Below, one piece after another: positions 1 to 53,821 of a stretch of DNA of 56,572 nt (the first letter of the stretch is position 1; each line of letters starts with the position of its first letter). Below the pieces are notes generated by a model. The model searched no databases and was not told where the DNA came from. It saw nothing but the letters and a program-made list of their open reading frames with translations. The stretch lies in contig JAURQX010000055.1 of the NCBI GenBank assembly GCA_030835905.1, positions 1-56,572 on the forward strand. The letters run 5' to 3'. The stretch is from Alphaproteobacteria bacterium. GTDB taxonomy: Bacteria; Pseudomonadota; Alphaproteobacteria; Rickettsiales; UBA1997. A program made the translations under genes and the position numbers.

Positions 1-140
1 AGACCCCTGCAAATCAACGAATTTTAGTAATTTTGTTGTTATTTTAATTTTTTAAATTCACGTATATCTTGATACGCTAAAATTTAAAAAATATAAAATG
101 CCTAAAAATTCCTCAAAATTGGTTGATTTGCAGAGGTCTT
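1..140. repeat. Palindromic intergenic element, subfamily A, copy A1 (RPE/MITE-like); first base(s) cut by window start
   Basis: Terminal inverted repeat AGACCCCTGCAAATCAAC...GTTGATTTGCAGAGGTCT; central CGTAT-atcttg-ATACG hairpin; reverse complement of 15354-15494 with about 2 mismatches. Confidence 0.92.
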
Positions 141-174
141 TTCTATTAAAGGTTTTGAATTTTTGTTTTTTGTA

Positions 175-231
175 CGCGAAACAATTCGCGACGCACGGTC
201 GTGCTTGCCAACAAATCTTTCGATTTGTCGG
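175..231 (-). other. GC-rich triple hairpin (possible small structured RNA or short repeat)
   Basis: CGCGAA-acaa-TTCGCG, GCAC-ggtc-GTGC, and on the minus strand CCGACAAATC-GAAA-GATTTGTTGG (GNRA loop, one G-U pair), in an AT-rich context. Confidence 0.45.
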
Positions 232-269
232 ATGAAGTATAATGCTAAATCCTATTTTAAAGATTTTTA

Positions 270-1349
270 ATGAAAGAAAATAACTGTAAACATTTTGGCG
301 AGTGTGGTGGCTGTGTTTTTGATAAAATTGGTGATGAAGCCTATCAAAAAGCTAAGATCGATCTAGTTAAAAAGGATTTAGCAAAAACTTTTGACCAAAA
401 AACTATTGAGCAATCAGATTTTATTTGGATTAATAAATATTCGCGTCGTAAAGCGATATTTCATATTAATCATCAAAATAAATTAGGTTTTTTTGCCAAA
501 AAGTCCAAAAATATTGTTGAAATTTCACAGTGTCTAATTTGTGAAGTCGAAATTTTTGCCTTAAAAAACAAAATTGAAGAATTTTTATCCTCATTTCCAC
601 AAAAATTATTTATAAAAGCAACTATTACAAAATTTGACAATGGGTTGGATTTGGTTTTAAGCTTAGCTAAAGAGCTAAATTTTACTCAAAATCAAAAATT
701 GATCAATTTTGCTAAAACACAAAATATCAATCTTTCTTATCAAATAAATGATGGTGATTTTTTGCCGATTTTTATAGCTCGTGCCAATCAAATTTATATC
801 AACAACCACAAATTAGATCTAACTTCTGATATTTTTATTCAAGCAACTAAAAAAGGTTTGGAAGTGATCACCAACAAAATAAGGCAAGAACTTATTTTAA
901 GACAAATAAAAGATCTTAAAATCGCTGATATCTATGCTGGTTTTGGCGCTTATAACTTTGCTATTACTGATTTAGCTCAAAAAATCACTGCTTTTGAAGG
1001 AAGTCAAGAAATGATAAAAATCTTAAAACAAAATTTAGCTAAAAATAACTTAAATAATAAGATCCAAGCCATAAATCGCGATTTATTCAATCAACCAATT
1101 CTTTCTAAAGAATTAAATAATTTTGATTTTATTATCATTAATCCCCCACGCAATGGCGCCACTCCACAAATTAAAGAAATTGTTAAGAGTAAGGTAAAAA
1201 ATTTAATTTACATATCCTGCAATCCCAAAACTTTTACTTTTGACAGTAAAATTCTTCTTGAAAATGGTTTTAAGGCACAGGAATTAACTATTCTAGATCA
1301 ATTTATCGGCTCCAATCATAGCGAAATTCTTGTCAAGTTTTTTAGATAA
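270..1349 (+). CDS. RNA m5U methyltransferase, TrmA/RlmD family (no TRAM domain)
   Basis: CKHFGECGGC 4Fe-4S motif, DIYAGFG SAM-binding motif, NPPR, catalytic YISCNP, DQFxxxxHxE. Confidence 0.9.
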   Translation: MKENNCKHFGECGGCVFDKIGDEAYQKAKIDLVKKDLAKTFDQKTIEQSDFIWINKYSRRKAIFHINHQNKLGFFAKKSKNIVEISQCLICEVEIFALKNKIEEFLSSFPQKLFIKATITKFDNGLDLVLSLAKELNFTQNQKLINFAKTQNINLSYQINDGDFLPIFIARANQIYINNHKLDLTSDIFIQATKKGLEVITNKIRQELILRQIKDLKIADIYAGFGAYNFAITDLAQKITAFEGSQEMIKILKQNLAKNNLNNKIQAINRDLFNQPILSKELNNFDFIIINPPRNGATPQIKEIVKSKVKNLIYISCNPKTFTFDSKILLENGFKAQELTILDQFIGSNHSEILVKFFR

Positions 1350-1361
1350 AAAAAATTTATA

Positions 1362-1390
1362 TTGATAAAAAAGTATTTTTTTGATACAAT
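1362..1390 (+). promoter_or_regulatory. Putative sigma70 promoter for the 1423 gene
   Basis: TTGATA-17 bp-TACAAT; AT-rich background lowers specificity. Confidence 0.45.
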
Positions 1391-1422
1391 ATAAAAAAGT
1401 CAGAAATTTTGGCTTTTAATTA

Positions 1423-51491: not shown

Positions 51492-51498
51492 ATTGGAT

Positions 51499-51960
51499 TT
51501 AAGATATGATAGTTGCCCATCTACTTCTGGCCCTTAATTTTCTAGCGTCAATTCTTCCTCTAATTTCAACAGCCCTATCTTTAATTGACAATGAGTTTCG
51601 CCAGCGAAAACTGTCAGCATTTAAATCTACTGACTGTTTAATCCTTTCCCTAGTCTTTGAATGCTTATTAATAGATAAACTTTTACGCTGCGATTTTTTT
51701 GCAATCAGAGCTCGTTGATTATCATGCAATCTTTTATGATGCATAATTATATTATCGACAAACCATCGCCTTCTTCTATTGCGTAATTTTCTAAGCTTTT
51801 TTCTTCCTGAGCTAGTGAGTCTAGAAATTCTAACATGGGAATATAAAAGACGCGCAAGAGAATATCCAGCAATATCATGAATCAACGATGGATGGGCCTT
51901 CAAAAAGCTTCTTGCGTCTAACTTTATATTTCCTACTAATCTTGAATCTCTTAGTCCCAC
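51499..51960 (-). CDS. Highly basic Arg/Lys-rich hypothetical protein
   Basis: 153-aa GTG-started ORF filling the gap exactly; no family recognised. Confidence 0.55.
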   Translation of the reverse strand: MGLRDSRLVGNIKLDARSFLKAHPSLIHDIAGYSLARLLYSHVRISRLTSSGRKKLRKLRNRRRRWFVDNIIMHHKRLHDNQRALIAKKSQRKSLSINKHSKTRERIKQSVDLNADSFRWRNSLSIKDRAVEIRGRIDARKLRARSRWATIIS

Positions 51961-52081
51961 AAATAAATATTTTTATTTAATAACTAATCGAAAGTGTACT
52001 AAATTTTTCAATTAAATAAAATGCTTTTTTTATATTATTTTTAATTTATTCAAACTTACGTGTTTTTTTAAAAATTTTGAG

Positions 52082-52672
52082 TCACTTTTCTGAACGTCGA
52101 TATTCTTTTGGTAATTGAAAATAACCTCTCCAGATCCCTAATTTATTGATCTTAGCCCTATTTTCTAGATTAATTATTGTTTGATTAGCTTTTGATAAAT
52201 CATATATAACAGCCATACCAGAAGAAATTATTTTTTCATTGATAGAATCATTTCCTAAAAAACATCTAGCAAGTATACGGTAGTATATATCTTTTTGCGA
52301 GTAATAACAAGAAATATCTTTACCCTCTATTAATTCTCTTAAAAAATTAGCACTTTCAACCCCGCATTTATAAGAATTATTATTGTCATCAAAGCATGTT
52401 TGACGGTATTCTGGAGCATCAATATCGAGAAGCCTTATTTCATTATTATTAACATATAATGAATCGCCATCTATAACTTTTGCCTTACCTTTTACAATTT
52501 TATCAAGTTCTGGCTCATTTTTGAACTCTTTATGAGAATCTTTCTTTTCATAAGGAGATGAATTTACTATATCCGTAGTTATAAATATAAAATATCCCAA
52601 AAAAACCGTCAAAAAAACTCCTTTAAAAAAACCTTTTTGCAGAATTTCTTTTAGAAACTTATTTTTATTCAT
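52082..52672 (-). CDS. Thermonuclease (SNase) family membrane-anchored nuclease
   Basis: VIDGDS, IRLLDIDAPE, DIYYRILA, AK..KLGIW.G...P..YR. Confidence 0.9.
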   Translation of the reverse strand: MNKNKFLKEILQKGFFKGVFLTVFLGYFIFITTDIVNSSPYEKKDSHKEFKNEPELDKIVKGKAKVIDGDSLYVNNNEIRLLDIDAPEYRQTCFDDNNNSYKCGVESANFLRELIEGKDISCYYSQKDIYYRILARCFLGNDSINEKIISSGMAVIYDLSKANQTIINLENRAKINKLGIWRGYFQLPKEYRRSEK

Positions 52673-52751
52673 AGAATTAGTAGCGAAAGAAAATTATTCT
52701 AAAAATATGTTTTCTATTTAACGCTTGGGTTAATAAATTTTTATCTGCAGG

Positions 52752-53636
52752 TTAAGATCTTACCAAATTTTTATAATCTTCAATTAGGCCAAGTGTTATT
52801 TTGTCAGGCTCTGGATAGATATATTGATCTTGTATATTTGAAATCCTAGTAATTTCAGCAGCACTTCCTGTTAAAAAAGCGTCCTTAGCATCAGCAAACT
52901 CTTCTGGCTTAATATGTCTTTCATTTACTGTTATCCCTTTTTTTCTAGCTAATTCTATAACAGTTTGACGAGTTATGCCATTTAAAAAACAATCTGGAAT
53001 TGGGGTATGAATTTCACCATTTTTCATAACTAAAAACAAATTAGCCCCAGTTGCTTCTGCCAAATAACCACGATAATCAAGCATTAAAGCATCATTGTAA
53101 CCCTCATTTTCAGCCTCATGTTTAGAAATTGTGCAAATCATATATAGACCTGCAGCTTTAGCTGAAGTTGGCGCAGTTTCTGGGGATGGCCTGCGATATT
53201 TAGCAAATTTAAGCTTTAAGCCTTTTTTTCTAGCTTCATCGGAATAATATGGCGGCCATGGCCAACAGGCAATCGCCACATGAATTTTATTACCTTGCGC
53301 CGAAATCGCCATTTTTTCTGAGCCGCGCCATGCAAAAACACGCATATAGCCATCAGTAATATTTTGCTTGGCAACTGTTTCAATTTTAAATTTGTTTAAA
53401 TCTTCAACGCTATAAGGAATTTTAAACCCTAAAGAATGAGCTGAATTATGCAATCTTTGAGAATGAAGCTCATTCTTAAAGATTTTTTTATTGTAAACCC
53501 TTTCTCCCTCAAAAACACAAGAAGCATAGTGTAATCCATGATTCAAAACATGAACTTTAGCATCTTTCCAGTCAACAAACTGTCCATTATACCAAATAAA
53601 GCCATCTCTTTGATCAAAAGGAATAATATCTGTCAT
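52752..53636 (-). CDS. ilvE: Branched-chain amino acid aminotransferase
   Basis: HGLHYAS.VFEG, AKAAGLY, EATGANLF, LNGITR, TGSAAEI. Confidence 0.95.
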   Translation of the reverse strand: MTDIIPFDQRDGFIWYNGQFVDWKDAKVHVLNHGLHYASCVFEGERVYNKKIFKNELHSQRLHNSAHSLGFKIPYSVEDLNKFKIETVAKQNITDGYMRVFAWRGSEKMAISAQGNKIHVAIACWPWPPYYSDEARKKGLKLKFAKYRRPSPETAPTSAKAAGLYMICTISKHEAENEGYNDALMLDYRGYLAEATGANLFLVMKNGEIHTPIPDCFLNGITRQTVIELARKKGITVNERHIKPEEFADAKDAFLTGSAAEITRISNIQDQYIYPEPDKITLGLIEDYKNLVRS

Positions 53637-53660
53637 ATTGAATTAAATATCATTTAGTAG

Positions 53661-53821
53661 TTATTACTCAGAGTATAAATTAGTAGATTTTTACTGCAAT
53701 ATTTTCCTTTTATTTTTTATTAAAAAAATTCGTAATAACCCAACTATTACAGGAATTTTTTAAATAAACCTAAAAGAAAAATCTTCTTGTAAAAATCTAC
53801 TATTTATGCTCTGAGTAATAA
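53661..53821. repeat. Palindromic element subfamily G (161 bp)
   Basis: Near-perfect ~33-bp IR TTATTACTCAGAGTATAAATTAGTAGATTTTTAC / GTAAAAATCTACTATTTATGCTCTGAGTAATAA; apical GTAATA-acccaac-TATTAC. Confidence 0.88.

Follow-up and report, generated by a model that had tools for sequence, protein, structure and literature searches.

Palindromic repeats of a Rickettsiales genome as probable families of miniature inverted-repeat elements, one of them related to RPE-1 and likely mobilised in trans by an IS5-family transposase

Rickettsia palindromic elements (RPEs), selfish palindromes first recognised in 2000, occur even inside Rickettsia genes; RPE-1 is the element reportedly described by Ogata et al. 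in that year. Our study concerns ten long palindromes, designated A1, A2, A3, B, C, D, E, F, G and a degenerate one, in a contig of a Rickettsiales genome (JAURQX010000055.1, assembly GCA_030835905.1). The window, i.e. the whole stretch of 56 572 nucleotides (nt) analysed here, is the entire contig C39 of that genome (G000; 1.25 Mb in 57 contigs, 88 % complete, approximately 30 % G+C), and its genes are ordinary alphaproteobacterial housekeeping genes; the DNA runs that hold the stretch derive from estuary and mangrove metagenomes. In the portions of the published accounts available to this study, RPEs are described from Rickettsia, with one family also in Wolbachia (PMC1779305), their target-site duplication is given as ‘?’ (Table 1 of PMC2229807) and no transposase is named for them (PMC2229807, PMC1779305, PMC10969869). 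[quoted passage not shown]

We consider it likely that the palindromes of the window represent several separate families of small, gene-free and non-autonomous MITEs that are cut and pasted in trans by DDE transposases, and that the principal A family (A-main) is moved by an IS5-family transposase that reads its ends. A1, A2, A3 and E belong to one old, RPE-1-related family. The transposase would bind the A-main ends, make a staggered cut of 5 base pairs (bp) in AT-rich DNA and insert the element; other arm variants match the ends of other IS variants. Different transposases would act on B and D, which have TACC ends and a TAA/TTA duplication, and on C and G, with their TA flanks. Mobilisation in trans is suggested because the arms of A are the ends of an IS5-family IS and its arm variants are the ends of IS variants, and for the latter reason the diversity of the arms may reflect co-evolution with transposase lineages. 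The marks of mobility comprise near-identical copies at contig ends, nesting, target duplications and insertion in both orientations. In what follows, other genomes carry G numbers, loci and metagenome stretches L numbers, and contig (C) numbers precede coordinates; palindrome families (f1, f2, f7 and so forth) are distinct from the taxonomic families f1, to which G000 belongs, and f20.

The candidate partner of A was found outside the G000 assembly. A scan of metagenomes for the 19 nt A end recovered 68 stretches, one of which (L097) holds inverted ends 1366 bp apart around a gene for an IS5-family transposase of 350 amino acids (aa; NF033581, 239 bits, with PF01609 and PF05598). The two arms of A-main are identical to the terminal inverted repeats of this IS at 19/19 and 18/19 positions. 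A species of the same genus (G003), which has 39 matches to A, carries the same IS, of 1364 bp and with an intact 346 aa gene (87 % identical by BLASTP), and a second IS copy with the exact 19 nt end, the A end agreeing with its locus L141 at all 19 positions. The same ends were observed on an internally deleted IS copy of 568 bp in G016 and on a decayed copy of 1183 bp in G017, while in G097, which belongs to another family, a transposase remnant lies approximately 480 nt from an end whose first 15 nt match the A-like MITE of the same genome. In run X3, one contig runs on from an A end into subterminal sequence belonging to the G003 IS. More distant relatives carry variants of the ends: a 62.5 % identical transposase in G198 resides in a 1380 bp IS with AAGACCTTTGCATA ends, which are those of the second A subfamily, and an IS of approximately 1 kb in G199, also of that NCBIfam type, carries TAGAC(C/A)TCCTGCAAAT at its ends, which resemble those of the TAGACTTC subfamily of A and of RPE-1. 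In G198, four of the five complete copies of the 1380 bp IS are flanked by 5 bp duplications, the same target-site duplication length as that of A. As only the terminal ~19 nt are common to A and the IS, A corresponds to a type II MITE in the terms of PMC10969869, in the portion available.

Insertion by transposition is visible at A2, a 141 nt A-main element (AAGACCCCTGCAAATCAAC...GGTCTT) at 15354–15494 on the plus strand, which lies within B (15298–15601), a member of the TACC...GGTA family that measures 158 nt without the insert, intact members being ~162 nt. A2 is flanked by the 5 bp duplication TTTAA (15349–15353 and 15495–15499) and B by the 3 bp duplication TAA (15295–15297 and 15602–15604). 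Comparison with uninterrupted B copies showed the insert to be the 141 nt element plus a repeated TTTAA, and contigs of paralogous B copies, when aligned with the window, omit exactly 146 nt (141 + 5). In four DNA runs the contigs break at A2 and none spans the A2 locus without the element. Across the genome, five of the eight A copies that have both flanks show identical 5-mers of varied sequence (A-main 3/6, AAGACCTTTGCACA subfamily 2/2), an event with a chance of ~0.002 per A copy by arithmetic from base composition. The other families left different footprints: a 3 bp TAA/TTA duplication flanks 6/6 copies of D, 7/9 of f2 and 3/4 of f7, and TAA/TTA/TGA (TGA once) flanks 9/14 elements found with a loose B anchor, three of those rows being f2 copies. 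C and G lie between TA dinucleotides in 8/8 and 4/5 copies, respectively; this TA could have arisen by duplication or could belong to the repeat itself.

A copies have often inserted into B-family elements or next to them, at sites that resemble TTTAA/TTAAA, as at window position 15354 and at C17:8071–8272, C5:15186–15498, C15:8146, C51:22594, C30:73484 and C24:69680, which suggests that A insertion prefers AT-rich B-family MITEs as targets.

The A family itself comprises A-main, A3, the AAGACCTTTGCACA and TAGACTTC subfamilies and E, which have one asymmetric core (GAGGAATTTTTAGG ... AGCGTA-loop-TACGTG ... ACAAAATTACC) inside differing arms, which serve as the terminal inverted repeats. The motifs that A and E were predicted to have in common are real, as are the change from GCGTA/TACGT to GCCTA/TAGGT in the apical hairpin and the compensatory changes between the arms of A2 and A3. 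Aligning 20 A-family copies with MAFFT led RNAalifold to predict the apical hairpin alone, because the arms had been misaligned, and this alignment was replaced by a model-guided one. In the latter, 90.4 % of cells were paired, compared to 74.4 % in shuffles (0/500 reached the observed value) and 35–56 % with slid partners, and double changes occurred in 53/58 pairs, compared to 29–35 with slid partners, although the size of the effect is inflated because the alignment was fitted to a model that favours pairing. A separate count over 26 single-strand rows gave 91.6 % pairing and double changes in 38/58 pairs. The direction of the effect is clear and is visible in the raw arms.

The relationship to RPE-1 was examined with two covariance models, R1 built from A and R2 built from five RPE-1 copies, for both of which the E-values are rough. 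R1 matched five of six RPE-1 copies (20.7–36.1 bits, E≤0.0024), with the better strand being the RPE1 frame strand in 6/6, and R2 matched 14/14 A-family loci (17.8–64.1 bits, 12 of them at ≥42.7 bits). The RPE-1 copies came from genus g36 (taxonomic family f20), in which three genomes have 50, 49 and 7 matches to the NCBIfam RPE1 domain; they read TAGACATCTTGCC...GAGAGGAATTTAAAGG...CAGCGTAC-loop-GTACGTGAGG...ACAAATTACC...AAGATGTCTA and are close to the TAGACTTC subfamily of G000. Among the other genomes of the order, which are incomplete and, where related, not independent of each other, R1 found matches at E≤0.001 in 20/150, from at least 11 families, and in the best of these the unpaired motifs recur in unchanged order. 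When RPE-1 was aligned locally with all 153 palindromes of the genome, the A-group (f17, f24 and A copies) took the six best scores, although by a small margin (26–32 versus a median of 21). A2 is also of RPE-1 size, being a palindrome with terminal inverted repeats in the range of ~105–150 bp. On the basis of these structure-aware models and the common motifs, the A/E family is related to RPE-1, and the predicted diversification of an RPE-like family was borne out for A and E, whose pairing is kept through many double changes. We file them as relatives of RPE-1 rather than as RPE-1 proper, understood strictly as a palindrome that codes for protein, because they have no match to the RPE1 peptide model, never lie inside genes and are not matched by a structure-free profile. 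One further palindrome, of 124 nt at G165:C1:128146–128269 (L057), lies in an RPE1-bearing genome and has no RPE1-domain match, yet the A model gave it 59 bits and the RPE-1 model 54.6. It probably represents a further RPE family with the same middle and apical core.

Elsewhere, the A/E core pattern occurred in the GTDB genome collection in one Rickettsiales metagenome-assembled genome (MAG) and in one chance Campylobacter match, with nothing else, and a BLAST search of a plasmid collection gave no match for A2 or for a g36 element.

Repeats account for 5.7 % of the assembled bases of G000, almost all of them 50–300 nt long. We counted 153 palindromes of at least 90 nt, many of them 158–165 nt, in 38 clusters, 15 of which are multi-copy. 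A occurs at 36 loci with at least 80 % element coverage, 31 of them at least 96 % identical; A-main measures 141 nt and its copies are mostly 98–100 % identical. The A core profile matched 83 loci at E<1e-3, including longer forms with a nested mini-palindrome. C has nine copies (87–100 % identity), D six full and four partial, G 12 full and 13 partial, and E two clear copies and one at 71 %; none of these is therefore single-copy genome-wide, and F alone is so as a full-length form, its core recurring by itself. Of the 114 contig ends, 36 lie in A copies and six more in G copies. Only three of the 153 palindromes lie within long open frames (≥150 aa), all three singletons and none from the named families, and none of 37 A-family palindromes does so.

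The longer A forms (183–189 nt) are multi-copy and carry a ~45 nt mini-palindrome, GAGGGAGATTTGATCAG...CATCAAATCGGCAAT, in place of part of the left core. They were located on contigs C14, C22, C3, C37, C50, C52, C8, C5, C46, C2, C54 and C24 of G000 and also at loci L015, L020, L021, L025 and L027 of G003, and are thus common to two species of the genus. A chimeric A at C44:2832–2973 (L046) combines an A3-type arm with an A-main arm on the opposite side, the two being uncompensated, and represents either a recombinant or an arm-change intermediate.

The original prediction regarded all ten palindromes as one superfamily with a common core, which did not hold: they fall into four or five sequence groups with differing target-site duplications. 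Grouping used an nhmmer profile per family, with scores judged against 20 dinucleotide-shuffled decoy sets. A and E grouped with three singletons and palindrome family f1 with two; D was unlinked; the families with TACC ends (f2, B, f7, f8 and others) formed a group weakly linked to C; and G grouped with f9, f14, f11, f12 and F. R1 likewise gave only 17 bits for D (E 0.07) and 16 bits for F (E 0.11) in the window, and nothing at E≤1 for C, G or B, while R2 gave 25 bits for C, 17 for F, 16 for D and nothing for G. The apical hairpin of F (GCGTAT..ATACGC) had been read as of the A/E type; instead, the F core matches f12 (32–44 bits), f11 and G above decoys.

Several observations weigh against the explanation that we favour. 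Conservation of the core across the order is not predicted by a transposase that reads ends alone, A and the IS share the terminal ~19 nt only, and the core of A does not come from the IS interior. The protein of the partner transposase has no match in G000, an assembly that is 88 % complete and breaks at A and G repeats. The IS copies in L097, L135 and L142 lack a clear 5 bp duplication, three of the eight A copies lack a perfect one and one nested copy suggests 3 bp, while the TAGACTTC subfamily and RPE-1 show TA flanks only. For B, C, D and G no partner was found, the metagenome scan having been made for the A end only. With regard to RPE-1, a structure-free nhmmer DNA profile of six RPE-1 copies had no match in G000 at E≤1, and the RPE1 peptide model (NCBIfam TIGR01045) had none at E≤10 among 13 open stretches of the window in six frames; its sole hint, at E=0.1, was for a relative in G130. 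It is possible that the core and the full-length pairing are kept for a hairpin that pairs the ends, for a second binding site or for a benefit at the level of the host.

A broader proposition, to which we give even chances, is that RPE-1, together with related elements throughout the order, comprises type II MITEs belonging to a single NF033581-type IS5-family clade, one with ends (A/T)AGAC..CTGCAAAT and 5 bp duplications where these are clear. Autonomous copies would survive in uncultured aquatic Rickettsiales, classical Rickettsia would keep dead passengers only, and the diversity of arms would result from repeated retuning of the ends to new transposase variants around a kept core.

The alternative that survives best, although we consider it unlikely, is that a host function mainly accounts for the retention of the elements, which would serve, as RNA or DNA hairpins, as bidirectional terminators, stabilisers of mRNA or small RNAs, their repetition then being secondary. 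Their intergenic position would fit such a role, E, F and G lying directly after stop codons, as would the scarcity of palindromes inside long open frames, the resemblance of the A ends AAAGACCCC...GGGGTCTTT to a two-way terminator and pairing that is conserved over the full length, further than any site of a transposase would extend. On the core strand, G:T cells are more numerous than A:C cells (95 versus 52), which also counts for a host role, but this strand test is not clean because a conserved A:C mismatch is also present. No palindromic element matched a family in Rfam 15, in which only tRNA passed and the best element match was a plant miRNA precursor model (E=0.23), and the target duplications, nesting, near-identical bursts and occurrence in both orientations are marks of transposition. 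A host role for individual copies, e.g. as a terminator, is possible and would, as exaptation, be compatible with mobilisation in trans.

Less probable still is the mechanism of the original prediction, in which a single structure-selected superfamily of all ten palindromes is mobilised by an enzyme, e.g. an HUH nuclease, with specificity for fold and core and not for terminal sequence. Lengths are alike (127–165 nt), the A core stays constant while the arms vary, with double changes in nearly all pairs, and the core is conserved order-wide, all of which would suit such an enzyme. However, three different target duplications were observed, and to our knowledge HUH enzymes make none. No match to a Y1 transposase (PF01797) or to TnpB was found in the genome, C, D and G have no detectable relation to A, and the A arms are identical to IS5-family IS ends, with arm variants matching IS variants. 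The duplications, the identity of the ends to those of an IS and the negative Y1 search tell against an enzyme that reads the fold. It is equally hard to credit that the match between A arms and IS ends is secondary, the IS having inserted into or recombined with A and A being moved by something else: only ~19 nt are in common and A often nests into other elements, but the repeat is present, correctly inverted, at both IS ends, the stretch from each end to the gene contains no A core, this arrangement recurs in L097, G003, G016, G017 and G097 (five separate genomes or contigs), the related IS in G198 and G199 have their own variants of the same ends, and the G198 IS and the A MITE both make 5 bp duplications.

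As predicted, no cognate transposase is present in the window, nor is there one in the G000 assembly, which contains no IS-sized element with A ends and gave zero matches each for PF01609, PF13358, PF01797, PF13359, PF07282 and PF13586. Two other transposase sequences of G000 were considered and set aside. An IS481-like IS on C36 (L033:1149–2375), with ends TGTAAAAACC, is unrelated to any MITE end; it is single-copy, encodes a 364 aa rve-domain transposase and has ends TGTAAAAACCACTAC... with the 7 bp duplication GTATAGC. A fragment at the end of C5 (L034:1471–1671; 67 aa, open-ended, rve 28 bits) resembles the terminal part of an IS3-type transposase truncated where the contig stops and is likewise unrelated to MITE ends. 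As for TACC ends, the IS of G008, G010, G019 and G033 and a 1355 bp IS of G198 were tried as partners and have other ends. The last of these has GGAACCTCTGA ends and >99 % identity among copies, and is one of two expanded IS types that account for 39 DDE_Tnp_4 matches in G198 (same taxonomic family as G000, genus g17; L146, L153, L155–L167). Among the matches listed for taxonomic family f1, pairs of TACC ends are MITE-sized only. The TACC-type end TACCAA(A/T)TCCCATCT occurs in 40/81 genomes and 15/17 genera of that family, with up to 135 matches (G003), compared to 0–1 for a reversed control pattern, so that the TACC MITE group is family-wide.

All ten palindromes of the original prediction were found at their positions and all lie between long open frames. 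Nine of the ten are strong hairpins (z −8 to −15 against dinucleotide shuffles, folded with both RNA and DNA parameters), whereas the degenerate one is weak (z −1.9 to −3.0). A1, A2, C, D, E and G fold as single stems, and a side branch occurs in A3, in F and in B when folded together with the inserted A2. A1, an RPE-1-like A-main copy at 1–140, lost one base to the contig start and has its core in the orientation opposite to that of A2, on the minus strand; it is 98.6 % identical to A2 and scored 148 bits with R1 and 54 bits with R2, with hairpin z-scores of −9.9 and −11.4. A2 itself forms 58 pairs in one hairpin (z −14) and scored 158 bits with R1 and 65.6 bits with R2. A3, a variant at 21043–21197 on the plus strand with arms AAGACCTCTCACAAATC.../...GATTTGTGAGAGGTCTT, has an 11 nt core deletion and a 23 nt insert (R1 61.2 bits, R2 17.7 bits). 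E (28770–28896, plus strand) is a diverged A/RPE-1-like member with decayed arms and the same core as A (R1 58.5 bits, R2 32.3 bits); it adjoins the coproporphyrinogen oxidase gene at its stop codon and has one close relative, at C21:31807–31936.

C (21213–21375), a 159 nt MITE with TAGATAAGTC...GACTTATCTA between TA dinucleotides, lies 15 nt from A3 (z −11.6). The degenerate palindrome at 22664–22837 is a decayed composite of a B-type left end followed by a remnant of the A core and one of an A arm; its first 30 nt match B-type ends at 90–97 % identity and the A core profile matches 22753–22813 (E=0.004). D (23866–24021; z −10.2) is a TACC...-ended MITE with the 3 bp duplication TAA, and a fragment of the f2 type starting with TACCAAATCCGATTT (24025–24128) adjoins its right duplication, which places two TACC-type elements in tandem. 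F (48017–48176) consists of a core hairpin (~48047–48145) between two 30 nt direct repeats, each of them palindromic, and is single-copy in this full form. G (53661–53821; z −13.9) is a MITE with a TTACTCAGAG...CTCTGAGTAA core at 53664–53818 between TA dinucleotides. Self-comparison of the genome revealed two further repeats in the window, namely degenerate TACC-type fragments upstream of the cysteine synthase gene (4089–4196), in which D-type and f2-type end motifs are visible, and a non-palindromic segment at 54802–54950 that overlaps the murein transglycosylase gene at its 5′ end.

Full-text searches revealed no paper that connects RPE-1 with an IS, and we found in print neither a transposase partner nor a defined duplication for the RPE-1 lineage. 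G000 shows a young, active-looking branch of this lineage, with a clear 5 bp duplication and ends identical to those of an IS5-family IS, and the candidate cognate transposase makes the question of what moves RPEs testable. The repeats also fragment the G000 MAG, 42 of its 114 contig ends lying in A or G copies, and look-alike hairpins should not be lumped, as the ten palindromes represent several families that differ in insertion chemistry.

Among known systems, Tourist-like MITEs of PIF/Harbinger and subgroups of the IS5 family produce TNA duplications, and B, D, f2 and f7 resemble them in duplicating TAA/TTA; this is a resemblance in target site only, no TACC-ended transposase having been found among the IS candidates and the family-wide TACC ends listed. 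REP/RAYT systems are likewise intergenic palindromic repeats, but in the available portion of PMC3733652 REPs are 20–40 nt, make no target duplication and are associated with a Y1 transposase, whereas A to G measure 127–165 nt, have duplications and occur in a genome with no PF01797 match. Type II MITEs, Correia, ERIC and RUP elements, as far as described in the available portions of PMC10969869 and PMC2229807, are likewise intergenic, 100–200 nt long stem-loops with terminal inverted repeats and duplications, and are conserved with the parent IS at their ends only; A differs in that its core is kept across the order while its ends vary, the reverse of the usual pattern. mISOt1 is, in the available portion of PMC2575882, a MITE that has only its terminal inverted repeats in common with an IS5-family IS, was amplified in a member of the Rickettsiales and is proposed to be mobilised in trans; we liken A to it by description rather than by sequence, the Orientia repeats being stated there to be unrelated to RPEs, and for A the IS lies in a sister species, outside the G000 assembly.

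RPE-1 is also among the closest known systems. The length is 141–146 nt, compared to 144 nt for RPE-1, with a full-length hairpin in both (PMC2229807, PMC1779305, available portions); the ends are TAGAC.TCTTGC against TAGACATCTTGC; and the core motifs GAGGAATTT..AGG, AGCGTAC-loop-GTACGTGAG and AAATTACC occur in the same order and orientation. The differences are that A and E are intergenic only, with stops in every frame (the longest open stretch of A2 is 29–31 aa), whereas many RPE-1 copies of g36 lie in open frames of 200–500 aa, and that A-main has AAGACC ends and a 5 bp duplication. The host is not of the genus Rickettsia, RPE1-bearing g36 (taxonomic family f20) and G000 (taxonomic family f1) belonging to different families of one order, and A has been recently active, whereas the three g36 genomes have no match to DDE_Tnp_4 (PF13359).

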